Source: Candidatus Micrarchaeia archaeon
GTDB taxonomy: Archaea; Micrarchaeota; Micrarchaeia; Anstonellales; Anstonellaceae
Reading direction: 5' to 3'
NCBI GenBank assembly: GCA_041671345.1
Contig: JBAZBT010000001.1
Location: forward strand, 1-30,677
Length of the DNA: 30,677 nucleotides
The translations under genes were made by a program, and so were the position numbers. The notes under the pieces were generated by a model that saw nothing but the letters and a program-made list of their open reading frames with translations, was not told the DNA's origin and did no database searches. This document shows positions 7,696-30,526 of the stretch, piece after piece. Within the stretch, counting starts at the first letter, position 1, and the number at the start of each line of letters is the position of its first letter.

Positions 7696-10302
7696 TCACG
7701 CGATTATGATCGGGGCAATGTCTTCCTTCTTTTCCTTCCCGCCCTTCTTCCCCTTCGCTTTCGCGCTTTCCGCTTCCTTTTGCGGAGGGGCTGGCGTTCC
7801 GTCGGGCCATGCGTGTTGTGCAGGCGGAGGTTTTGGCGGCTCGCCCTTTTTCATCCCGCTGCCTTCCCCGTTTTCTTCCGCATCCGCGGCGACCTTCTCA
7901 AGCGCGACCACTTTCTCGCCCTCGTCCAGCTTCATGAGCCGCACGCCGCCCGTGTTCCTGCCTATTATGCTGACGTCCTTCACGAACAGGCGTATCATCT
8001 TGCCGCCCGAGGAGACAAGCAGGAGCGAATCGGAATCCACCACCGGCGCGATTCCCACAACCTTGCCGTTCCTTCCGTGCGTCTTGATGTTGATGACGCC
8101 CTTGCCGCCTCGCGACTGCAGGCGGTACTCGGAAATGTCCGTCCTCTTGCCATACCCGTTCTCGGTCACAATCATGAGCGTTTCGGTCTCGTCCGTGGCC
8201 ATGCCGACAACTTCGTCCTTGTCCTCGAGGCGTATGCCTATCACGCCCTGCCCTGTCCTCCCTATCTCGCGCACGTCATCCTCCTTGAAGCGGATGGCAT
8301 TGCCTTCGGCTGTGGCGAGTATGAGCTCGCGCCTGCCGTCCGTCTTCTTGGCGTCGATGAGCGCGTCGCCGTCCTTGAGCGTGATTGCGATGATGCCCCC
8401 GTTCCTCGGGCGCGAATAGTCCGCCATGCTGCTCCGCTTCACGATGCCGTTCTTGGTGAGCATCACCAGGAATTCCTTGTCCGAGAAAGTGCGCGTCTTT
8501 ATCCATGCCGCGATTTTCTCGCCGGAAAGCGAAAGCAAATTCACTATCGCCTTGCCCATGGCATACCTTCCGCCCGTCGGTATCCTGTACACCTTGAGCC
8601 AGTGCACGTCCCCCTTGTCGGTGAAGAACAGCAGGTGGTCGTGGGTGGAGGCAAGCAAAATGTCCTTTATCTGGTCCTCCTCCTTCGTCTCGCTCCCGAT
8701 GACGCCCCTGCCTCCGCGCCTCTGCGCGCGGTACTCGGAAATCGGCACGCGCTTGATGTAGTCGTCCTGCGTGATTATGACCGCGACGTCCTCCTCCGCA
8801 ATGAGGTCTTCCATTTCCACCTCGCCGTCGTCGTCTATTATCTCCGTCCGGCGCTTGTCGCCGTACTTCTGCTTCACTTCGGACAGCTCCGCGCGTATCA
8901 GCCCGTATATCTTCCTCTCGTCCGCAAGCACCCCTGCAAGGTATTCAATCGTTTTCGAAAGCTCCGCGTCCTCGTCTTTGAGCTTCCCGGACTCGAGCGC
9001 GGACAGTTTCCGTATCTTCATCTCAAGTATCGCCTCTGCCTGCTTCTGGGAGAGCGAGAACTCGCGCATGAGCGCCTCAAGGGGCACTTTCGCGGTCTTC
9101 ACGGTCCTTATGATTGCGTCGATTTTCGCAACCGCCAAAAGCAGCCCCTCCACCAGGTGCTTCCTCTCCTGCGCCACGCGAAGCTCAAAAGCGCTCCTCC
9201 TCTTCACCACGGCCTTGCGGTGGGCAAGGAACTCGGTGAGGAGCTGCGGCATGGAAAGCGTCTTGGGCTCGTTGTTCACGAGCGCCAGGTTGTTTATGCA
9301 AAACGTCCCTTCAAGCTCCGTGTGCGCATAAAGCTGGTTGAGCACCACGTCGGCATTCGCATCCTTCTTGACGACTATCTCCACGTGCATGCCTTTCCTG
9401 TCCGACCTGTCCGCAATGTCCGCGATGCCCTCCAGCTTCTTGTCGCGCGCAAGCTCCGCCACGTGCTTGATGAATTCAGCCTTGTTCACCTGGTAGGGCA
9501 TTTCCGTTATCACAATCTGCGTTCTCTTCTCTTTTGCCGTAATGATTTCCGCCTTGCCTCTCACGCGGATTATCCCCCTGCCGGTGGAGTACGCATCCGC
9601 AATGCCCCGCCTGCCTACGATGTAACCTCCTGTCGGGAAGTCCGGGCCGGGTATGAGCGCGCGCAGCGCCTCCGGGGGCATGTCCGGCTTGTCAATCATG
9701 GCGACAAGCGCGTCCACCGTCTCCGACAGGTTGTGCGGCGCCATGTTGGTCGCCATGCCGACCGCAATGCCCGACGAGCCGTTCACGATGAGGTTGGGCA
9801 CGCTGCACGGCATCACCGTGGGCTCCTTGAGCGTGGCGTCGAAGTTCGGGGTGAAATTTACAGTCTCCTTTTCAATGTCAGTCAAAATCTCCTCTGCAAA
9901 CCTGGACAGCCTTGCCTCAGTGTACCTCATGGCGGCAGCCGCGTCCGCATCCACCGAGCCGAAATTCCCCTGCCCGTCCACGAGCATGTAGCGCATGGAA
10001 AAGTCCTGCGCCATCCTCACCATGGAGTCGTAAATCGCGACGTCGCCGTGCGGGTGGAATTTACCCAATACTTCCCCCACCACGCGCGCGGACTTCTTGT
10101 GCGGCTTGTCATGCGTGTTTGACAGCTCGTACATTGCGAAAAGAATCCTCCGGTGCACCGGCTTGAGCCCGTCGCGCACGTCCGGGAGCGCCCTGCCCAC
10201 TATCACCGACATGGCATAGTCTAGGTAGGAGGTGCGCATCTCCTTTTCCACTGCGCGCGGCAGTATCCTGCCGTGCTGGTATTCCCTGTTTTCGTCAGCC
10301 AT
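7696..10302 (-). CDS. gyrA: DNA gyrase subunit A
   Basis: FHPHGD, catalytic [11 protein letters not shown], GyrA-box QRRGGRG, six-blade CTD repeats; 64-aa Pro/Lys-rich tail. Confidence 0.97.
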
Positions 10303-15913: not shown

Positions 15914-18499
15914 CTAGGCGGCGCGCCTGTTTGCAGGCTTGGGCCCGATTATAGGCTTTGGAACCGCCTTCACTGTTTCGTTTGCCCCTGCCGCTTCCAC
16001 TGCCGTGCCGTTGTTCAGCCCGGGCTTGGGATGCAGCATCGCTGCGCCGTTGAAGTAGAACGGCGTGAGCGGGGCGTAGTCGACTGCATTGCCCGTTATC
16101 TTGCCCTGCGAGGTGCTCGCGCTGTATGGGAAGCCTGTTCCGTTCCTGCCGATGTAGAGTGAAGGGAAACCGCTTGACGTCTGGTTGCCCTGCACCTTCA
16201 CTGCGCCCGACAGGACGTTTGCGTAGATGTTGCCCTCCTGATTGCCGTTTACGCTTGCGTTGTAGGAGTTTCCGCCCGCCATGTCGTTGATGTAAATATT
16301 GCCGCCTGTGAAGTTGTTCCAGTAGAACGTGTTGCCGCTTGCTGCCCCCTGGATTTTCACCAGGCTCCCGCCTGATGCGAGCGTGTTGTTCACAATCACG
16401 TTGCCCGTGCTGCTGCCGGAAAACGAATCGATTGTCAGCGCCGCGCCGCCCGTCGAAATCATTGTGCTGTTCTCCACCCTGTTGTTGCTGGCATCCTCTA
16501 TCAAGAGCGCGCCCGCGGTTCCCGTGAACCTGCTTGATTTGACAACCGTGAAGCTCGACGAGGTTATCCAGTTCCCCTTCAGCATGCCTCCCCCGGTGCT
16601 GTTTGCATTGCAGGCGTCCAGGACCGTATTGTTGCTGGCATATGCGCCAAAGCCCGCCGACCCGATGGCGCTGCAGTTGACAAGCAAATTGCCGCTTGAG
16701 AGGTCCAAGGCAATTCCCACGTCGTATGCTGAAATGCCTTTTGTATTTGAAAGGATGTTGTTGTTGCTTGAAGCCGATATCGATATCCCTGGCGCATCAT
16801 TCGTTATCGTGCCATTCATCGTGCCTATGCAGCTTTCCAGCACGTTGTTGCTGCTGCCGTGCATCAGCACTGATGGCGAACTGGCGCCCGGGTAATGGCG
16901 GTTGGTCCCATTCACTCCCACGAGCCGGTTGTAGTTCGAGTGTATGGTGTGCACTGCGTTATTCGATGCGGCGCCATTCTCGCCAATGTCAAAGCTGGAC
17001 GATGAGATATTGTTGTAATCGCTATTGTCCAGCCAGAGCGCATCGTCTCGGGTGGTCGCCTTGACTTTTGAAATCGTGTTGTATTGGCTTCCAATAAGCC
17101 TGACTCCTGAGCTCCTGAAATACTGGCTGGACGAACTGTCGATGCTAATGTTTTCCACATTGCTGAAAGTTGCGGATTGGAGCACTATTCCGTATGCAAA
17201 TGCGTCTAGCCTGCAGTTTCTCATCCTGGTGTTGGACCTGCCTGTGGCGTCTATCCCGGTCCCTCCGCTGCCAATTTCCGTTATGCTGTGCCCGTTGCAC
17301 TCTATTGTCACGTTGTCCGCCGCCACGGTAAAGCAAGTGCCTGTGCTGTTTAGGTTTGAAGTCACGTTGCACACATAGTTCGGCGCATTCAGCACCCCGC
17401 ACTGGCATCCCTGCGCAGGCGCCGTGGTGTTGTTGAAGTAGAACTGCGTGAGGGGCGCGTAATCAATCGCGCTGCCCACTATCTTGCCCTGCGATGTGGT
17501 CGAGTTGTACGGGTAGCCGGTTCCATTCATGCCTATGTAAAGCCCCTGCCCGTAGGCCGAGGAAACATTGCCCTGCACCTGCACGGCTCCGCTAAGCACA
17601 TTGGCATAGATGTTGCCCTCCGGCCTGCCGTTCACCAGCTTGGTGTAATAGTTGCCGGGTGAGCTGTCATTGATGTACGCGCCGCTTGTTGCGGTGAAGT
17701 TGTTCCAGTAGATGGTGTTCATTGGCGATGAAGGGTTGAGCGCCAAGAGGCTATTGGACGCGCCTCCGGAGACGAACGTGCTGCCGTATATGCTGTTGGA
17801 GAAGGCGGAGGAGAGCGACGCCACGCCGCCTGACGAGGAAGTGAAGGTGCTGTTCGCTATCGTGTTGCCGTTCCCGCCCGTGATTGCGAGGGCGGCGCCC
17901 GAGGCTGCGGTGACGCGCGCGTTTGAGACTGTGTTGGAGGCGGCCGTGAGCAGGTACAGCGCCATCGTGCTCGAGCTTGCGGTGAAATCGGAGAGCCTGT
18001 TGTCGTGCGGGCCCCCCTGCAGCACTATCTGCCCGCTTGCGTTGAAGTTGGAGAGGGTGTTGTTGGCCGTCGAGAAAATCATGTAGATGCTTTTCTGGCC
18101 TGATGCGGTGAAGCCTGCCAGGGTGTGCTGCCCTCCTGCGGCAATCGTGATGCCAGCCCCGGCTGGCGAGCTTGCCGCCGTGCCCTGCAGAAGCGCGCCT
18201 GTTGCGCCGTCGAGGTAGACGCCGGTGCTGAAGCCGTATACCATGCAGTTCCTGACCGTCGTGTTCTGCTGGTTGGAGTGGATGCCGTAGCCCGCGCCTA
18301 ACCCTGTCACGGAGTGGCCCGCGCAGTCTATCTCGACGTTGGGCGCAGCCACGGTGAAGCACGTCCCGTCTGCCTGCACATTTTGGGCAAGGGTGTAAAT
18401 GCCGGGGGATGATAGCGTTTGGCACGCCGAAACATCCACTGCGAAAGCGCTTCCTAAAAGGGCAACAAATGAGATAACGAGCATGAAATTATTCCTCAT
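15914..18499 (-). CDS. secreted right-handed parallel beta-helix (PbH1/NosD-like) surface protein with two tandem modules
   Basis: Signal peptide (MRNNFMLVISFVALLGSAFA), many NNxxxN repeats, duplicated N-cap and C-cap motifs; TTTATAAA at 18536-18543. Confidence 0.85.
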   Translation of the reverse strand: MRNNFMLVISFVALLGSAFAVDVSACQTLSSPGIYTLAQNVQADGTCFTVAAPNVEIDCAGHSVTGLGAGYGIHSNQQNTTVRNCMVYGFSTGVYLDGATGALLQGTAASSPAGAGITIAAGGQHTLAGFTASGQKSIYMIFSTANNTLSNFNASGQIVLQGGPHDNRLSDFTASSSTMALYLLTAASNTVSNARVTAASGAALAITGGNGNTIANSTFTSSSGGVASLSSAFSNSIYGSTFVSGGASNSLLALNPSSPMNTIYWNNFTATSGAYINDSSPGNYYTKLVNGRPEGNIYANVLSGAVQVQGNVSSAYGQGLYIGMNGTGYPYNSTTSQGKIVGSAIDYAPLTQFYFNNTTAPAQGCQCGVLNAPNYVCNVTSNLNSTGTCFTVAADNVTIECNGHSITEIGSGGTGIDATGRSNTRMRNCRLDAFAYGIVLQSATFSNVENISIDSSSSQYFRSSGVRLIGSQYNTISKVKATTRDDALWLDNSDYNNISSSSFDIGENGAASNNAVHTIHSNYNRLVGVNGTNRHYPGASSPSVLMHGSSNNVLESCIGTMNGTITNDAPGISISASSNNNILSNTKGISAYDVGIALDLSSGNLLVNCSAIGSAGFGAYASNNTVLDACNANSTGGGMLKGNWITSSSFTVVKSSRFTGTAGALLIEDASNNRVENSTMISTGGAALTIDSFSGSSTGNVIVNNTLASGGSLVKIQGAASGNTFYWNNFTGGNIYINDMAGGNSYNASVNGNQEGNIYANVLSGAVKVQGNQTSSGFPSLYIGRNGTGFPYSASTSQGKITGNAVDYAPLTPFYFNGAAMLHPKPGLNNGTAVEAAGANETVKAVPKPIIGPKPANRRAA

Positions 18500-18561
18500 C
18501 AAACCACCACAAACGACAATTCTGCTGCGAAGGTTTTATAAATCGCGCGCGCCCTGCCGCT

Positions 18562-18602: not shown

Positions 18603-18659
18603 TCAGCTGCATCCAGTGGTCTCCCCACAGTCGATGCAGACTTGGCACGAGCCGTTCTG
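18603..18659 (-). repeat. displaced original 3' end of nrdJ ([18 protein letters not shown])
   Basis: Encodes the same 18 aa plus stop as 18719-18775 with 16 synonymous nucleotide differences; followed by a T-tract. Confidence 0.95.
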
Positions 18660-18718
18660 CCCCTAGGGGGCATTGGCTAGCCATCAGATCCCCCTGATGG
18701 TTCACCCCCACATGCTTC

Positions 18719-21700
18719 TCATGAGCAACCTGTAGTTTCACCGCAGTCTATGCACACTTGACAAGATCCATTTTGTTTTACTTTCATGGAGCTGCAGGCA
18801 AGGCACTGCGCGCCCGTGAAGCCCTGCTCCTTCGCGGCTTTTGCGCGCGTCTCGTATTCCTCGCTTTCGCTGCCCGTGTCCTTCTCGGCAGGCGCCTCCA
18901 CTAGCTTCCCCTGCGCCTTCTGGTCCTCGATGCGCGGGACGGGCGGGTGCTCGCCTGCCGCGTGCGCGCCGTGCGAGTCGCCGTTCACGGGCTTCACATG
19001 GACAAAGTCAGTCCTCTGCAAATACTCGTACCCCAGCACGCGGAACACGTAGTCCACGATGGAGGTGGCGTTCTTCACGGCATCGTGCCCGGTGACCACG
19101 CCGGCAGGCTCGAAGCGCGTGAAGGTGAACGTGTCCACGAACTCGTCGAGCGGCACTCCGTACTGCAGGCCCTTTGACACCGCGATTGCAAAGCAGTTCA
19201 AAAGCGAGCGGTAGCCCGCGCCTTCCTTGTACATGTCTATGAATATCTCGCCGAGCGCCCCGTCCGGATATTCCCCCGTTTTCAGGTACACCTTGTGCCC
19301 GCCCACCCTCGCCTCCTGGATGAAGCCGCTCCTGCGGGTCGGAAGCTTGCGCCGGTTTATCCTGCCCACTATCTTGCTCTGCATCTGCGCAGGCCCGAAC
19401 GACTCGTCTATCTCGTCGCCAAGCCCGAAAAGCTGCGCAAGCTCGTCCTCGTCGACATCCGCGGTCGCATTGAGCGGCTGGGAGAGCTTGCTGCCGTCGC
19501 GGTAAAGCGCGTTCGACTTCACCATCTGCCTCCAAGAGAGCATGTACGCCTCCTTGATGTCCTCGATGGTGGAGTCGGAGGGCATGTTCACGGTCTTTGA
19601 AATCGAGCCTGACAGGAACGGCTGCGCCGCCGCCATCATGCGTATGTGCGCGGTGTACGGGATGAACCTCTTGCCCTTTTTCCCGCACTTGTTCGCGCAG
19701 TCGAACACCGAGTAGTGCTCCTGCTTGAGGTGCGGCGCGCCCTCGATTGTCATGGTGCCGCACACGTATTCGTTCGCCTCCTCCACCTGCTGCTTGGAAA
19801 AGCCCAGCTTCGACAAAAGGTCGAACTTCGGGTCGGCGAGGTCGGCATCGGCAAACCCGAGCCCCCTCATGAAGTCCTCGCCGAGCACGTACTTGTTGAA
19901 TGCGAACTTTATGTCAAACGCCTTGGGGAGCTGCGCCTCCACCTTCGCGATTTTCTCGGCGGTGAATCCCTTTGCGGCAAGCGCCTCGGCATTCACGTGC
20001 GGGCAGCCCGAAAGCGTGCCCCTGCCTGCGGAATAAAGCTCGATGTCCCTGACCTGCGCGGCTCCGTAGCCGAGCTTGTGCAGGGCCTTCTTCACCGAGT
20101 TGTTCACAATCTTGAAGTACCCGCCCCCTGCGAGCTTCTTGAACTTCACGGTGGCAAAGTCGGGCTCGATTCCCGTGGTGTCGCAGTCCATCTGCAGGCC
20201 TATCGTCCCCGTGGGCGCAATCAGCGTGGTCTGGGCGTTCCTGTAGCCGAATTCCTCGCCGAGCGCATACGCCCTGTCCCAGCATTCCTGCGCCGACTGG
20301 AGCATGTACTCCGGGCAGTGCGTGGGGTGTATCCCCGTCGGCTTGACCGACAGCCCCTCATACTCGTTGTCCGCCGCGCTGTGCGCCGCCCTCCTGTGGT
20401 TCCGAATCACGCGCAGCATGTGCTCGCGGTTCCTCTCGAATGCGGGAAAAGCGCCAAGCTCGCGCGCCATCTCCGCCGATGTGGAATATGCCTCGCCCGT
20501 CATTATCGCCGAAATCGCGCCCGCCATGGCAAGCCCCTGCGGGCTGTCGTACGGCACGCCCATCACCATCAAAAGCGTGCCCAGGTTGGCGTATCCCAGC
20601 CCGAGCGTGCGGAACTCGTAGCTTTTCCTCGCAATCTCCTTGGAGGGGAACTGCGCCATGAGCACAGAAATTTCGAGCACGATTGTCCAAAGCCTGCTTG
20701 CGTGCTTGAATGCCTCGACGTTGAAAACGCAGGTCTCCTCGTTGTAGAACTTCATCAGGTTCATGCTGGCGAGGTTGCACGCGGTGTCGTCAAGGAACAT
20801 GTACTCCGAGCACGGGTTGGACGCGTTTATCCTGCCGTCTATCGGGCAGGTGTGCCACTCGTTTATGATGTCGTCGAACTGCAGCCCCGGGTCGGCGCAG
20901 CTCCACGCCGCGAACGCAATAGTGTCCCACAGGTCGCGCGCCTTCATCCTCTTCATCACGCTCCCGTCGGTCCTTGACAGAAGCGTCCAGTCGGCGTCGT
21001 TCTGCACCGCCCAGACAAACCTGTTGGAGAGCCTTACCGAGTTGTTGCCGTTCTGCCCTGCAACCGTGACATACGCCTCGGACTCGTAGTGCGTGTCGAA
21101 AACCGGGAAGTCGATGTCGGTCTTGCCCTGCTTGACAAGCGCGAGCGTGCGCAGTATGTAGTTCATGGAGACGTTCTTCGCAAGCGCCTGCACGACCGCG
21201 AGCTTGATGCGCTCGTTCTTCAAATCCGTGCTCTGCTCCTCCTTTGCCACGCGCATTATCCTCTTGAGGGATTTCGAGCATGCCTTGGTGCCTGCGACGA
21301 GCGCCGCCACCTTCTGCTCCTCCCTCACCTTCCAGTTCACGAATTTCTCGATGTCCGGATGGTCGACATCCACGATGACCATCTTCGCGGCGCGCCTTGT
21401 CGTGCCGCCGGATTTTATGGCGCCCGCCGCCCTGTCGTATATCTTGAGGAACGACATCATGCCTGACGACTGCCCGCCGCCCGAGAGCCTCTCCCCCTCG
21501 CCCCGCAGGCACGAGAAGTTGGTGCCCGTTCCCGAGCCGTACTTGAAAAGCCGCGCCTCGCGCGTCACGAGGTCGAATATGCCGCCCTCGTTCACGAGGT
21601 CGTCCTTCAGCGACTGGATGAAGCACGCGTGGGGCTGCGGATGCGTGTAGGCATCCGTGGACTGCTTCACCACGCCGTCAGCCGGGTCGACGTAATAGTG

Positions 21701-25883: not shown

Positions 25884-26546
25884 TTGAACTTCAAAACCTT
25901 TATTGAAAAATTCAAGCCGAAAAGCAAGGAACAGCGCGAGCTTGAGCTCCGCAAGGGCGACTTCTCTGAAAAAGGCCTGAAGAACGCGCTTGACAAGGCC
26001 TTCCAGAGGATGCAGGAAAGCGGAGTGGATCGTGTTGTGCTCAGCGCCGTCCCGCTTCCGGCCAATGAGCCGTCGAGCGGGGAGAAGCACCCGGGCAATT
26101 ATTACCCCGCGGAATCGCTTACTTCTGTTGAACGCCCATATATCAAGGAAAGCGAGCACAAGCCATACCAAGTGGTTGCATTGCTTGCGGATGGCGCAGA
26201 AAAGCTTTCTGGCAACTCTATAGAAGTCGTTGACAGGGTGCCATTCTTTGTCTTCAGCCTTGTCGAGCCGCATAGGTTTTCCAAAGCCAGGACAGTTTTC
26301 AACGGCGAGCAGGAGATAGATGCATTCGTCAAAATTGCCAGCGTGCAAAAAGGGATTTCGGCAGGCGCCACACTCGCGGCAGTCGAGCCGCAGATAGCGG
26401 AGTACAAGCAGATAACAACCCGGCTCTTTGAGAAGTCAGGCGTCTACGAGGCGGTGGAAAAGCTTGCTGCGCGCGAATTTGCCAACGAAACAGACAAGTT
26501 TCTGTTTAGCATAAGGGAAGCCATTGCTTCTGCGAAGAAGGATTAA
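25884..26546 (+). CDS. hypothetical protein, 220 aa
   Basis: ORF with TATTTAAATA at about 25842-25851 and a TTG start; no recognisable motif. Confidence 0.6.
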   Translation: MNFKTFIEKFKPKSKEQRELELRKGDFSEKGLKNALDKAFQRMQESGVDRVVLSAVPLPANEPSSGEKHPGNYYPAESLTSVERPYIKESEHKPYQVVALLADGAEKLSGNSIEVVDRVPFFVFSLVEPHRFSKARTVFNGEQEIDAFVKIASVQKGISAGATLAAVEPQIAEYKQITTRLFEKSGVYEAVEKLAAREFANETDKFLFSIREAIASAKKD

Positions 26547-26548
26547 GC

Positions 26549-26583
26549 CTGCGTCCCCTTCGCGCAGTCGTTGCAGACAAAGC
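26549..26583 (-). repeat. displaced copy of the Zn-finger gene 3' end (direct repeat 1)
   Basis: 34/35 identical to 27347-27381; reads FVCNDCAKGTQ, then A and a TAA stop at 26543-26545. Confidence 0.95.
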
Positions 26584-26598
26584 TCCAAGGGGAGTCCC

Positions 26599-27303
26599 TC
26601 AAGCTTTAGGCGTTTCTGTTATCATGTCGAATTCTTTCTCATACTTGCCTCTTAGAAATACCTCGAATATGGCGATGGCAAATGGAAGCAAGATTGCATA
26701 TGGCGCCAGCAAAACCGTTCCGGCAAGAGTCAGCTTGCCGATGAATTTTTTCAATGATCTGCCCGTGAACTGGTTGTTCTTTTTTAAAACAGCGGCATAT
26801 TCCCCCTTTCCGATGATTTTCGATGCAAGAATGTCTGTTCTTGCCTCGATTTTTCCAATAAAAACAGCAAGAAAGACGTTTACTGCCGCAATCGTGCCAA
26901 TTGCCAGCCCGGCCGATTTGGTGGCTATCGAATAAATTATAGCTGCGGCTTCCAAGGCGTATGCAAGATAGATGGTCGCCCCGAACTTTTTCACGTCTTT
27001 TTTATAGTAATGGATGAACTCATGCGCTGAAACAGCATTCACCGTGCCCTTGTCCGCAATGCCCAGATAGGGAACTGAAAAGGAAACAGCGCCTTTCCAC
27101 GTGTTGCTGGCTTGCGGAAACGGCAATTTATGCAATTCCATCCTTGGCGGGGCAATTCCAAACATTTTGGACAGCTTCCGAATCCTGTCTTCAGCCACTG
27201 CCGCATTCGCCACGGCTTTTTTAGAATAAGCCCCGCCTGTAACCGGCTCCCGAAACAAAGACTGTTTTGTTGCCCGCATAGGATGGAATCTATGCAGAAG
27301 CAT
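26599..27303 (-). CDS. M48/M56-like membrane zinc metallopeptidase (cassette cargo)
   Basis: HEFIH motif, two TM helices, then EARTD (third-ligand position); AT-richer than host genes. Confidence 0.7.
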   Translation of the reverse strand: MLLHRFHPMRATKQSLFREPVTGGAYSKKAVANAAVAEDRIRKLSKMFGIAPPRMELHKLPFPQASNTWKGAVSFSVPYLGIADKGTVNAVSAHEFIHYYKKDVKKFGATIYLAYALEAAAIIYSIATKSAGLAIGTIAAVNVFLAVFIGKIEARTDILASKIIGKGEYAAVLKKNNQFTGRSLKKFIGKLTLAGTVLLAPYAILLPFAIAIFEVFLRGKYEKEFDMITETPKA

Positions 27304-27340
27304 TTTTAAAAGTAGCCAAAAGTGGAACTGCGCGAGAGAG

Positions 27341-27481
27341 CTACTGCTGCGTCCCCTTTGCGCAGTCGTTGCAGACAAAGCCCGTCTTGCAGTTCGGCCT
27401 TCCGCAGTTGCCCTTCCCGCACGCGCGGCAGGTCTCGGTCGCAGTCCTCCCGCAAATCGCGCACAAACCAGCAATGTTCAT
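27341..27481 (-). CDS. small Cys-rich zinc-finger protein, 46 aa (absent from the ORF track)
   Basis: MNIAGLCAICGRTATETCRACGKGNCGRPNCKTGFVCNDCAKGTQQ* has three CxxC motifs plus 2 Cys; TTTAAATATA box about 30 nt upstream. Confidence 0.85.
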   Translation of the reverse strand: MNIAGLCAICGRTATETCRACGKGNCGRPNCKTGFVCNDCAKGTQQ

Positions 27482-27509
27482 AAGAATCACTTCAACGGGA
27501 ATTGGGGGG

Positions 27510-27541: not shown

Positions 27542-27928
27542 ATGGCAGGAAAAAACCTTCTCCCCGCGCTTTCGGACGGAAAGTATTTCGTCGGCTCATT
27601 TTCCGAGGCTCAGATGATGGGGCTGGCAGGCTACCTGCAGCACATAACCTGCATCTTCCGCGAGGAAGAGGGGCTCACCGTTGTATTCTCTGGGAATGCA
27701 AAATCCGCCCTGGAAATATACACCGAGAAAAAGATGCAAGGACCGTTCGCGCTCATCACATTGCGCGCGCCAACTTCCCTTCTCGACGTTGGCATAACTG
27801 CGGCGTTCTCATCCGCGCTTGCGCGCGAAAAAATCCCGGCAAACGTGTATGCCGGCTACCACCACGACCACGTGCTTGTCCCGTACGAAAAGCGCGAGGC
27901 TGCGCTTTCGGCGCTGAAAAAATTGTAG
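27542..27928 (+). CDS. ACT-domain protein (DUF2241/CASTOR-like)
   Basis: FREEEGLTVV, LLDVGITAAFSSALAREKIPANVYAGYHHDHVLVP. Confidence 0.85.
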   Translation: MAGKNLLPALSDGKYFVGSFSEAQMMGLAGYLQHITCIFREEEGLTVVFSGNAKSALEIYTEKKMQGPFALITLRAPTSLLDVGITAAFSSALAREKIPANVYAGYHHDHVLVPYEKREAALSALKKL

Positions 27929-27937
27929 AAATAATGC

Positions 27938-28693
27938 CTAAGCGGTTTCCTGGGGGGGATTAAGCTTCTCCTCCAAGTCTGCAAGCCTGGCTAATCTCTT
28001 CTTCAAAGTAGGATGCGTGCTGAATATCGGGTGCTTTTCCCTCCACCGCAAAAATGACAGCTCGGCGCTTCCCTTCAGCGTGCCGTATCTGCCTTCCCAC
28101 AGGAACGATGCAATATATTCAATAAGCGGTTTCGCACTCCCGTTGAGCGTTGCTGCGTATTTATCGGCGCTTATTTCACATACTCTCGAAAACCATTTCC
28201 TGGCAAGCCATGCCGCCAGCATGCATGCGCCTATCGCCGGGGCTTTTTGGGCAAACGACTCAAATGCATCTGGAAAAGCTGCAAACAGCTTTAGCACGCC
28301 TGTTATTAGCAAAGTCGCAGCCGCAATCCCGAATGCTATCTTCTTCATGATGTGTTTCTTTGCAATGTGCCCCAGCTCGTGCCCGATTGCGCCCCTCACG
28401 GCGTTTTCGCTGAAGGTGCCGAGCCTTTCGCCCACAACTACTGTGGTGAACCCGGACGCGGCGCCATACGCAGAGGCTGCCCTTCTTTTACCCTCTTCCT
28501 TCCTGACATATATGCTGCTTAAGCCTGCCTTTATGATGAGCTCCCTTGCAATGTTGCCGATTTCCGCATCAGTCAGCTCTTTCTTCTGCTTTCCAATAAG
28601 CTTGGGCGGGGTGTCGCCCTTTCTTTTCCCAAAAGCTGCGCTATGCCTTTTGCTTGCAACCTGCAAGTATGGCACTAGCAATGCCTGTTTCAT
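27938..28693 (-). CDS. M48 family (HtpX-like) zinc metallopeptidase
   Basis: HELGH, EISAD, STHPTLKKR; two TM helices; own TATA (TTTAAAAA at about 28715-28722). Confidence 0.85.
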   Translation of the reverse strand: MKQALLVPYLQVASKRHSAAFGKRKGDTPPKLIGKQKKELTDAEIGNIARELIIKAGLSSIYVRKEEGKRRAASAYGAASGFTTVVVGERLGTFSENAVRGAIGHELGHIAKKHIMKKIAFGIAAATLLITGVLKLFAAFPDAFESFAQKAPAIGACMLAAWLARKWFSRVCEISADKYAATLNGSAKPLIEYIASFLWEGRYGTLKGSAELSFLRWREKHPIFSTHPTLKKRLARLADLEEKLNPPQETA

Positions 28694-28752
28694 AATTCTC
28701 TTATGCTGGCTAGACTTTTTAAATGTTGCCTAAAATGAGTTTTTGTGCCATG

Positions 28753-28800
28753 TCACTTCAGCACGCCGTAGCCCGGCAATCTCCGCCGTTGGCCAAAGCG
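28753..28800 (-). repeat. displaced, decaying copy of the aIF2gamma 3' end
   Basis: Reads RFGQRRRLPGYGVLK* versus active RLGQRWRLSGYGVLK* (29299-29346). Confidence 0.9.
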
Positions 28801-28814
28801 CCCGCCTAATCACT

Positions 28815-29264
28815 TCAGTATATGTACTCAATTTTCACTCCTGGGAAATCCTTTGCCGTGGGCACATAATCGCTCCTTACGAAGCTGACAATCCTCGTTC
28901 CATCCTTGAACTGGAAACGCATCCATGTGCTCCTCGGGCCCCTTACGGCTTGGGCCAAAGGCTGATGGAATTCCACTTTTTCCAGCCGTGCAATCAAGTA
29001 TTTTTTCGACGTCTGCGCGGCAAGCGGTTTTTTGGTCAGGAATTCGATTGTCCCACTGGCGCTTTGCACGCGGACTTCCCTTTCAGTCGCAAGATCCATC
29101 ATGGCAAATGCAATTATGGCAAAGAAAACTGCTCTAAATACTGGGGTAACCCATCCTTCCGCGGGGTCTACAAAAAAATAAAGAAGGCTGAATAAGCAGC
29201 ACGCAAGCGCTAGGGCCACTGCAACATCAAATATCCGTTGATTGGAATTTTTCCTCGCCAACAC
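28815..29264 (-). CDS. 2-TM membrane protein with beta-rich (PH-like) cytoplasmic domain (cassette cargo)
   Basis: Two hydrophobic helices followed by a beta-strand pattern; AT-richer; SD-like AGGGTGA upstream. Confidence 0.6.
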   Translation of the reverse strand: MLARKNSNQRIFDVAVALALACCLFSLLYFFVDPAEGWVTPVFRAVFFAIIAFAMMDLATEREVRVQSASGTIEFLTKKPLAAQTSKKYLIARLEKVEFHQPLAQAVRGPRSTWMRFQFKDGTRIVSFVRSDYVPTAKDFPGVKIEYIY

Positions 29265-29298
29265 AATGCAGTCTTTTTCTTTCGTGTCTTCACCCTGT

Positions 29299-30495
29299 TT
29301 ACTTCAGCACGCCGTACCCTGACAATCTCCATCTCTGCCCGAGCCTGCGCGTGATTGCCATCTTGTTGCCCTTCTCGGCGCAGACGGGGCGCTTGAGCTT
29401 CAGCGTCACCGTGGTGCCCTTGAGCTTGACAATGACGCCAAGCGTGGTCGCCGTGCCAGACGAAACCACGAGCGGCTCCGCGGCTTTCAGCGCAGGATTG
29501 TCAAAGCCTTCGCGCGCAAGCAGCTTGTAATCAAGCACAATCTCCGAAAGAATGGGCGGAAGCGTCCCCTTTTTCCCGATCAAATTCCCGACGAGGTGGT
29601 CCGACTTCGCAACCGCGGGGTCAAGCCCTGTTGCAACGCCGATGAGCCCGCCCGGGTGCGCCTCCTGCACCGACTGGCTGCCCGCCATGAGCGCGGTCAC
29701 TTTCAGGACAAGGGGCTCGGTGCTTTCCTTGTCCTTTATCTTCTTGGAAATGCCCGGGGCGATTTCAATCTCGTCGCCCACTTTCAGGGTGCCCTGTATG
29801 AGCGAGCCGCCCACCACGCCCCCCTTCAGCTTCAATATGTCCGCGCCCGGCTTGTTCACGTCGAACGAGCGCGCCACGTACATGCGCGCGGGAAGCGAGG
29901 TGTCCCTCTTCGGGGTTGGAATCGTCTTCTCAATCGCCTCGATGAGCTTGTCTATGTTCGCGTTGTAGTTTGCGGATATCGGGACAATGGGCGCGCCCTC
30001 GGCAGTGGAGCCCTTGAGGAATTTCTTTATCTGCCTGTAGTTCTCCATCGCCTTTTCCTTGTCCACCAGGTCTATCTTGTTCTGCACCACCACGACGTTT
30101 TTTATGCCGAGGATGTCCAGCACCTGCAAATGCTCCTCCGTCTGCGGCTGGGGGCAAACTTCGTTCGCGGCAATCACCAATACCGCGCCGTCCAGTATGG
30201 AAGACGCCGATATGGTGGTGGTCATGAGCGTTTCATGCCCTGGCGCGTCAAGGAAGGAAACATAGCGCGCGACTTCCCACTTGTCCTTGTCCTTTGCCGC
30301 CTCTGCCTCGGTGGCATACCCTGTGCCGTCCTTGCCCTTGTAAAAAGTCACGTCCGCGTAGCCTATCTTTATCGTGATGCCGCGCTTGAGCTCCTCGGAG
30401 TGCGTGTCCGTCCACTTGCCCGTAAGCGCGCGCGTTAAGCTAGTCTTTCCGTGGTCGACGTGCCCGACCATCCCGATGTTCACTTCAGCTTGCAT
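29299..30495 (-). CDS. eif2g: translation initiation factor 2 gamma subunit (aIF2gamma)
   Basis: VNIGMVGHVDHGKT, EELKRGITIKIGY, DAPGHE, QPQTEEH, NKID, RSFDVNKPG, GGVVGG. Confidence 0.97.
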   Translation of the reverse strand: MQAEVNIGMVGHVDHGKTSLTRALTGKWTDTHSEELKRGITIKIGYADVTFYKGKDGTGYATEAEAAKDKDKWEVARYVSFLDAPGHETLMTTTISASSILDGAVLVIAANEVCPQPQTEEHLQVLDILGIKNVVVVQNKIDLVDKEKAMENYRQIKKFLKGSTAEGAPIVPISANYNANIDKLIEAIEKTIPTPKRDTSLPARMYVARSFDVNKPGADILKLKGGVVGGSLIQGTLKVGDEIEIAPGISKKIKDKESTEPLVLKVTALMAGSQSVQEAHPGGLIGVATGLDPAVAKSDHLVGNLIGKKGTLPPILSEIVLDYKLLAREGFDNPALKAAEPLVVSSGTATTLGVIVKLKGTTVTLKLKRPVCAEKGNKMAITRRLGQRWRLSGYGVLK

Positions 30496-30526
30496 CAAAT
30501 GCCTCAATTGATTGAATCAGAAAAAA

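Follow-up and report, generated by a model that had tools for sequence, protein, structure and literature searches.

A stranded second end of the aIF2-gamma gene in a Micrarchaeota genome, a candidate recombination scar behind a translation factor

The locus behind aIF2-gamma

We analyzed a stretch of 30,677 nt (contig JBAZBT010000001.1 of assembly GCA_041671345.1, Candidatus Micrarchaeia archaeon; hereafter the window) in which the last codons of the translation factor gene aIF2-gamma occur a second time, downstream of the intact gene. The window is one whole contig of a fragmented metagenome bin of 0.96 Mb (128 contigs, 72% complete). The aIF2-gamma gene (29299–30507, minus strand) encodes 402 amino acids (aa) and is intact, with a complete set of GTPase domain (Pfam GTP_EFTU, 1.7e-33), domain II (GTP_EFTU_D2, 2.1e-09) and eIF2-gamma C-terminal domain (eIF2_C, 3e-20), all above the Pfam cut-off. 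Its four closest counterparts among the matches listed, at 93–95% aa identity, come from Candidatus Micrarchaeota/Micrarchaeia bins from groundwater and lakes.

The active 3' tail of the gene, meaning its last 15 codons and TAA stop, occupies 29299–29346. A spacer of 34 nt (29265–29298), which has no second copy in the genome, leads from that stop to the GTG start of an open reading frame (ORF) for a membrane protein of 149 aa (28815–29264), for which two transmembrane helices and a PH-like beta domain are predicted. After the stop of this ORF come 14 nt of filler (28801–28814), presumably an illegitimate joint and with no copy elsewhere in the genome, and then a 48-nt copy of the aIF2-gamma end (28753–28800), an 18-codon open frame closed by TGA. 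We call this the stranded tail. It lies 546 bases downstream of the active end and is followed by a 59-nt spacer (28694–28752) and the gene for an M48-family peptidase of 251 aa and mosaic ancestry (27938–28693; Pfam Peptidase_M48, 2e-19). An A/T-rich box in the spacer, TTTAAAAA, about 30 nt before the ATG of the M48 gene, is a putative promoter. All of these features are on the minus strand.

The duplicated gene end is real

The active and stranded tails are identical at 35 of 48 nt and 12 of 15 residues, with their stop codons in register. They share an exact run of 16 nt, TACGGCGTGCTGAAGT, at 29301–29316 in the active copy and 28755–28770 in the stranded one. Similarity is confined to the stretch from about 48 nt before the stop to the stop itself. 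The initial annotation of this DNA, made from the sequence by eye, had placed the two tails at these positions, and its coordinates, its count of identical residues and its 16-nt exact match agree with ours. It had also named a similarity no greater than chance in a shuffling test as a refutation. We simulated 200 first-order Markov sequences with the base transitions of the window. Their best 48-nt matches to the active tail scored 26.3 on average and 31 at most, and the second-best match within the window itself is 26/48.

Logan contigs from two groundwater runs, belonging to two different studies, cover 28300–29364 and 28300–29418 with zero differences from the window, taking in the start of the M48 gene, the stranded tail, the ORF and the active tail. 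One of these runs may be the source sample of this genome. Since contigs from two studies agree base for base, the arrangement is not an assembly artefact. No joints skipping the insert were seen, which, in contigs only, is uninformative about pop-out in the population. A lake water run (X3) gave short related pieces only and was not used as evidence of habitat. We conclude that the duplicated aIF2-gamma tail is real and that its stranded copy is non-functional.

A 9-mer, CTGAAGTGA, had been pointed out at 28810–28818, overlapping the stop of the membrane-protein gene. Its score of 18 falls within the range of shuffled sequences (median 16, 95th percentile 20), and it is therefore not evidence. 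A candidate third, degenerate tail copy near that same stop was rejected, as it scored no better than shuffles.

The stranded tail resembles another lineage's allele

Ten of the 13 nucleotide differences between the tails are synonymous, and they include two Arg codons that differ at two positions each. Under random substitution, at least 12 of 15 residues stay intact in only about one trial in a thousand (P ~1e-3), which argues that each copy diverged as a functional allele in a lineage of its own. The three non-synonymous changes (L>F, W>R and S>P) all strike positions that are invariant in 24 relatives and thus look like genuine decay. The initial annotation, which had noted the W>R and S>P changes, took the stranded copy for an old one that is decaying. 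That description suits three of the 13 differences and fails for the other ten.

Over its first 30 nt, the stranded tail is closest to the aIF2-gamma tails of G021 and mg65 (23/30 each, the two best of 24), compared with 18/30 to the active tail of its own genome. The active tail is the clade's usual allele, matching G018, G006 and G022 at 26–28 of 30 positions. Relative to the gene body, then, the foreign-looking copy is the stranded one and not the active one. Both copies carry the rare Tyr codon TAC, found among the relatives only in mg58. Judged from these alignments, the stranded copy is probably another lineage's functional allele to which three decay changes have been added.

The 149-aa protein is a conserved neighbor

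The 149-aa protein has no Pfam match, and a word-based protein search returned only the protein itself. An exhaustive HMMER search of 1.8 billion proteins recovered about 11 cluster representatives of its family, and every representative with readable context is encoded directly downstream of aIF2-gamma on the same strand. Family members stand behind aIF2-gamma in G006, mg56, mg57, mg60, L077/L078, an ERZ1426829 contig, L079 and L080. The gap between the two genes in these relatives is mostly 8–12 nt, or the genes overlap, and tandem pairs of the family gene sometimes occur. Identity to the window protein is 27–43%, compared with about 90–95% for the adjoining aIF2-gamma genes, and the family alignment has conserved C-terminal motifs.

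A second tail is absent at nearly all of these loci, where the best downstream match to the last 20 nt of aIF2-gamma is at most 15/20; in the three positive loci (window, G009 and mg56) it is 18/20. The window and mg56 are the only loci that have both the family gene and the M48 gene, and both hold a tail remnant between the two. The 149-aa protein had been described as membrane-protein cargo. Its family adjoins aIF2-gamma at eight or more further Micrarchaeota loci, where a stranded tail is almost always absent. It is instead a resident, fast-evolving operon partner of aIF2-gamma and not mobile cargo.

A structure model from the single sequence was too poor for use (predicted local distance difference test score, pLDDT, 56). 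The model built from the family alignment reached a pLDDT of 84 and has two transmembrane helices and a seven-stranded domain. Foldseek matched this model to membrane PH-like proteins of the PH/YcxB/DUF304/YdbS type at template modeling (TM) scores of 0.4–0.6, and its search of the PDB gave nothing below an E-value of 1e-3. The predicted fold thus resembles membrane-anchored PH-like proteins (YcxB, DUF304, YdbS). Two of the relatives, mg60 (L060, 1737–2745) and L080 (1935–2832), have two diverged tandem PH-like membrane genes behind aIF2-gamma. Many family members also have long acidic N-terminal extensions, which the window copy does not have.

Ancestry changes at the stranded tail

In G022, G021, mg55 and mg65, the spacer and M48 gene found here behind the stranded tail stand behind an intact aIF2-gamma instead. 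These four loci, in which aIF2-gamma leads directly into the spacer and M48, are the empty alleles that the initial annotation had called for. In 60-nt bins, the spacer upstream of M48 is 87–95% identical to those of G022, mg55, mg56 and mg65 and 72–75% identical to that of G021. The M48 gene itself is 83–91% identical to that of G021, with patches of 97–100%, and the aIF2-gamma genes of the same two genomes are about 76% identical. The pattern with G022 is the opposite (84–89% for aIF2-gamma and 68–75% for M48). Because aIF2-gamma and M48 rank these two relatives in opposite order, the stranded tail sits at a change of ancestry.

G021 and mg65 are the genomes with the most similar M48 genes, and the gene is a patchwork. 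Its identity to different relatives swings, from one 60-nt bin to the next, between about 60% and 100%; positions 28051–28140 are 100% identical to G021. Sliding identity over the last 600 nt of aIF2-gamma revealed no sharp breakpoint. Since the stranded piece is tied to an M48 block of other ancestry, the inserted side could be either one.

An accessory-gene hot spot in the genus

The synteny comparison took in 22 genomes from the genus as well as 15 metagenome contigs. Their backbone consists of pdxS-pdxT followed by Znr49, a gene for a 49-aa Zn-ribbon protein, and aIF2-gamma on the opposite strand. The simplest genomes have hardly any DNA between aIF2-gamma and Znr49. Elsewhere the interval holds varying combinations of an ACT gene, M48, the 149-aa family, a methyltransferase, Fic/DOC, a TauE exporter, a cupin, a weakly PAD-like protein of 494 aa, an AlbA_2/HATPase_c_4 regulator with a DUF2283 protein, and a CAP-domain protein. 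In the window, the right edge of the variable region is a convergent ACT-domain gene (27542–27928, plus strand; Pfam ACT_7, 1.1e-11) with 91.5% nucleotide identity to G006. The expectation that different genes would occupy this site in different genomes is thus borne out, and the interval behind aIF2-gamma is, by its gene content, an accessory-gene hot spot.

Other stranded gene ends

Two further aIF2-gamma loci carry a repeated tail. In mg56, aIF2-gamma is followed by a family member 35% identical to the window protein and then by M48, with only an 18-nt core between the membrane-protein stop and the M48 spacer. In G009, that genome's own aIF2-gamma tail is repeated 1.9 kb downstream (38/48), with an exact run in the same position but of different sequence. 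The genes between the G009 tails are unrelated to those in the window and include a Schlafen AlbA_2/HATPase_c_4 regulator and DUF2283. Homologs of the AlbA_2 gene in G022 (87% aa identity) and G003 (77% aa identity, by tblastn) lie at other loci with no flanking tails. Homology to both ends at the gene borders, so that the comparison is uninformative as a test of a cassette moving with its flanks. The CAP-domain gene of G009 has no close ortholog behind aIF2-gamma in the other genomes, and no empty allele can therefore be shown for G009.

The same layout recurs within the window at Znr49 (27341–27490, minus strand), in a region spanning 26543–27490. The Znr49 tail is found again 798 nt downstream (26543–26583, minus strand; 34/39 nt), behind a gene for a HExxH membrane protein (26599–27302, minus strand). 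The stranded copy encodes the ending found in relatives, ...GTQA*, and abuts the convergent orf220, as in G018. From the Znr49 tail to 66 nt past its stop, the window (27271–27346) and G006 (L040, about 7700–7780) are 100% identical. Beyond this shared 66 nt, at the ATG of the next gene, protein identity between the two falls to 28%, and this start codon appears to be a very sharp recombination breakpoint.

A third case in the window is nrdJ (18603–18790, minus strand). Its final 15 residues, or 18 as judged by eye, have a second coding copy 116 nt downstream. The copies agree at 15 of 15 residues and 32 of 45 nt (about 30% changed); none of the 13 differences alters a residue, and the active copy is richer in A and T. 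Partial copies of the nrdJ spacer occur on contigs C126, inside a tRNA intron, and C115. Such relatives of the junction were found only for nrdJ; at aIF2-gamma and Znr49, the junctions and spacers share no motif and have no additional copies in the genome. As a separate observation, an 862-aa ORF at 15914–18502 contains internal direct repeats (16049–16294 versus 17432–17677; 71–80% identity, 1383 nt apart), which suggests a repeat-domain protein.

Nucleotide self-BLAST of the genome yielded mostly terminator-like repeats, a tRNA fragment and paralogs, and missed recoded cases; we therefore scanned the whole genome with peptides anchored at stop codons. Four more recoded gene ends were found on other contigs of this genome (C13:1717–1831, minus; C2:5741–5851, plus; C4:14940–15073, minus; C107:2164–2321, minus), each comprising the last 8–10 residues and the stop, 63–110 nt downstream. 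Judged by eye from their C-terminal sequences, they include amidohydrolase-like, NAC/UBA-like and GTPase-like genes. The repeated unit on C13 also takes in about 20 nt of the 3' untranslated region. The same peptide scan of about 0.6 Mb of the relatives' loci gave no cases beyond G009. Separately, contig C92 (2092–2242) repeats the 3' half of a tRNA exactly over 38 nt, at a distance of 113 nt and beside a run of N; this could be an att-type remnant or a scaffolding artefact.

Search for element machinery

The initial annotation had reported no Cas1, PolB or terminal inverted repeats, and our searches agree. Cas_Cas1 and Phage_integrase had no match in the 72%-complete genome; the control search for the latter was positive in 14 of 14 known genomes. 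No terminal inverted repeats were found at the ends, and 28700–29400 holds only two inverted repeats, both internal. The imperfect palindrome of integron cassettes (attC type) was likewise not seen, with no inverted repeat at either junction and no tyrosine recombinase match. The identical core shared by the two tails measures 16/16 nt in the window, 16/16 in G009 and 17/18 in mg56. Beyond the 16-nt exact repeat, similarity extends upstream into diverged coding sequence; the stretch is also conserved throughout the clade. The suggestion of an insertion by an element-type event was thus not upheld, since either side could be the inserted one and no sign of a dedicated element was found.

Origin of the stranded tail

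We lean, with some reserve, towards explaining the stranded tail as a recombination scar, that is, an out-of-register joint left by homology-facilitated illegitimate recombination (HFIR) between two haplotypes. We infer the mechanism, as well as what may have come in, from the arrangement of the pieces. The hot spot exists in the genus as alternative versions, one with aIF2-gamma followed by the small membrane PH-like gene, and another with aIF2-gamma followed by a spacer of about 60 nt and the M48 peptidase gene. In the lineage of the window, the two versions would have been concatenated and not exchanged. DNA from a related species may have paired with the resident chromosome through homology on one side and been joined illegitimately on the other, where homology stops near the aIF2-gamma stop, about 48 nt out of register. 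The product would be an intact aIF2-gamma with its partner, the 14-nt filler, and then the last 48 nt of the other allele with its own spacer and M48. The incoming piece could be either the membrane-protein block or the M48 block. Such a joint would be harmless and could persist, since an intact gene end with its stop comes first. Joints inside genes would presumably be purged while those behind an intact copy would be neutral, which would account for the position of the scars at gene ends. A single mosaic import would fit the three scars found within 11 kb.

Several findings support this. The fragment is homologous to the active end and still attached to its former downstream neighbor, and ancestry changes across the joint, between aIF2-gamma and M48. 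The mostly synonymous divergence of the copies, the likeness of the stranded tail to G021 and mg65, the fixed place of the membrane-protein family behind aIF2-gamma and the lack of element machinery in the sequences searched count on the same side. The same topology recurs without a shared motif at Znr49, nrdJ, G009 and the four additional gene ends, which we count in favor of a scar. Other findings weigh against it. The exact core comprises the same 16–18 nt, from an F/Y codon to the stop, in the window, G009 and mg56. Inside the core there are zero wobble differences in the window and G009, while just upstream 4–7 of 10 wobble positions differ, a pattern that would be expected from a crossover at a defined site or from an att-like core. 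This is tempered by the core being the most conserved nucleotide stretch of the tail across the clade, and the window and mg56 tails may descend from one event. In addition, all of the duplicated tails are short (18–55 nt) where random illegitimate joints could strand longer pieces, and recombination between alleles that are only 60–75% identical is expected to be inefficient.

A dedicated system of cassettes that replace gene 3' ends is, in our view, unlikely. Such cassettes would be small or promoter-less and site-specific, with a recombinase acting in trans and the 16-nt core as the crossover site; each insertion would bring or regenerate a gene end and strand the old one. The three aIF2-gamma loci with the same core boundaries, the uniform shortness of the duplicated tails and the layout of new end, insert and old end at three or more genes within 11 kb of the window all fit this idea, as does the nrdJ insert, which contains a repeat also present within a tRNA intron at another place in the genome. 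Against it, no recombinase was found in the 72%-complete genome, and the junctions at aIF2-gamma, Znr49 and nrdJ have no common motif above chance. The supposed cassette genes also occupy the same place in other genomes without a duplicate, and the foreign-looking end at aIF2-gamma is the stranded one. The Znr49 junction, identical over 66 nt between the window and G006 in front of genes that are 28% identical, argues further that end and cargo do not travel together. More broadly, and in our view unlikely, foreign DNA might repeatedly be installed exactly at the last 20–55 nt of genes in Micrarchaeota, with the gene end regenerated, by a mechanism that is recombinase-independent or acts in trans; the recoded tails at aIF2-gamma, Znr49, nrdJ and the other genes would then be its footprints.

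It is improbable that the insert is what remains of a tyrosine-integrase element with its att site in the gene 3' end, its integrase and nearly all of its genes having been lost. Direct repeats with an identical core do flank the insert, a replacement gene end, the hallmark of such elements, is present, and the G009 insert contains accessory-type genes (Schlafen AlbA_2/HATPase_c_4 regulator and DUF2283). However, all four inserts that were examined (aIF2-gamma in the window, Znr49, G009 and mg56) are without an integrase, the genome has no Phage_integrase match, and deletions would have needed to leave both att sites intact every time. The window insert is a single 450-nt gene with conserved synteny to aIF2-gamma, and it is the active end that is the clade's usual allele, while the stranded one is of the G021/mg65 type that accompanies M48. 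An even less probable origin is in situ duplication of the gene end, by target-site duplication or replication slippage, with neutral decay of the downstream copy. The L>F, W>R and S>P changes at invariant residues fit a loss of constraint, and the TAC codon common to both copies, with mg58 as its sole other occurrence among the relatives, also speaks for it. By our estimate, however, free decay predicts about 57% residue-changing differences, and 3 of 13 were seen (P ~0.014, binomial calculated by hand); the corresponding count at nrdJ is 0 of 13, and the stranded copy is nearer to the alleles of other genomes than to its own active copy. As for chance similarity or an assembly chimera of co-existing strains, the fragmentation of the bin would make a chimera conceivable, but we give this hardly any credence. 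The real match of 35/48, in register with the stop, exceeds the simulated maximum of 31, a chimera cannot produce the novel junctions, contigs of two studies match base for base, and the independent assemblies of G009 and mg56 have the same kind of structure.

If the stranded tails are recombination scars, they are physical markers of where imported DNA ends. They would show that tiny uncultivated DPANN archaea swap chromosomal DNA between species of a genus, with some exchanges resolved illegitimately; at this locus, genomes with about 76% identity in their backbone share patches of 97–100%. Gene flow and hot spots could be mapped in metagenome bins by a simple signature, a gene end that recurs in recoded form immediately behind the gene. 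It also urges caution, as not every duplicated gene end is the att site of a mobile element. Should the minority reading of an installing mechanism be true, it would amount to a way of placing new genes behind essential ones that has not been described before.

Comparison with known systems

The first demonstrations of HFIR, as cited in PMC5361080, came from Acinetobacter, S. pneumoniae and P. stutzeri. HFIR has been proposed as the source of displaced or orphan 3' ends in Rhs loci and in effector-immunity arrays of the Vibrio cholerae type VI secretion system (T6SS) (PMC5361080). As in those scars, a conserved upstream gene at our locus would be the homologous anchor, and incoming DNA would bring a working 3' end along with new genes behind it, displacing the old 3' end downstream together with its former neighbor. 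An element-encoded recombinase would not be needed, and orphan-free haplotypes coexist. Unlike the Rhs and T6SS cases, the host is a DPANN archaeon of the Micrarchaeota, with an essential housekeeping gene, and not a toxin, as the anchor. Stranded pieces here measure only 18–55 nt, and the encoded end is unchanged, a synonymous allele and not a new toxin tip. HFIR is known from bacteria, and its operation in Micrarchaeota is what we infer.

Integrative elements such as e14 and phage 21 enter the 3' end of icd in E. coli and supply a replacement end. They resemble our locus in the duplicated end with many synonymous differences and in the restoration of an intact gene ahead of a stranded pseudo-end. 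They differ in that no integrase, element body or att arms are seen here, the gene between the repeats is a conserved neighbor, and the foreign-looking copy at aIF2-gamma is the stranded one. Casposons of family 1 in Nitrosopumilus target the 3' end of aEF-2, and casposon target-site duplications are 14–15 bp. The 3' end of a translation-factor gene is likewise the site here, with a 16-nt repeat close to that size. In contrast to casposons, there is no Cas1, PolB or terminal inverted repeat, the insert is 0.5 kb instead of many kb, and the repeat extends upstream of the core as diverged coding sequence.

The locus is also like pangenome hot spots, in that the interval between core genes (aIF2-gamma to Znr49 to pdxT) differs in nearly every genome; unlike in the usual reports of such hot spots, the joints are visible as stranded gene tails. 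On the reading that we favor, the structure belongs to an ordinary kind, displacement scars at recombination hot spots. Its setting is unusual, in DPANN archaea, behind an essential translation factor and with several recoded tails in one small genome.

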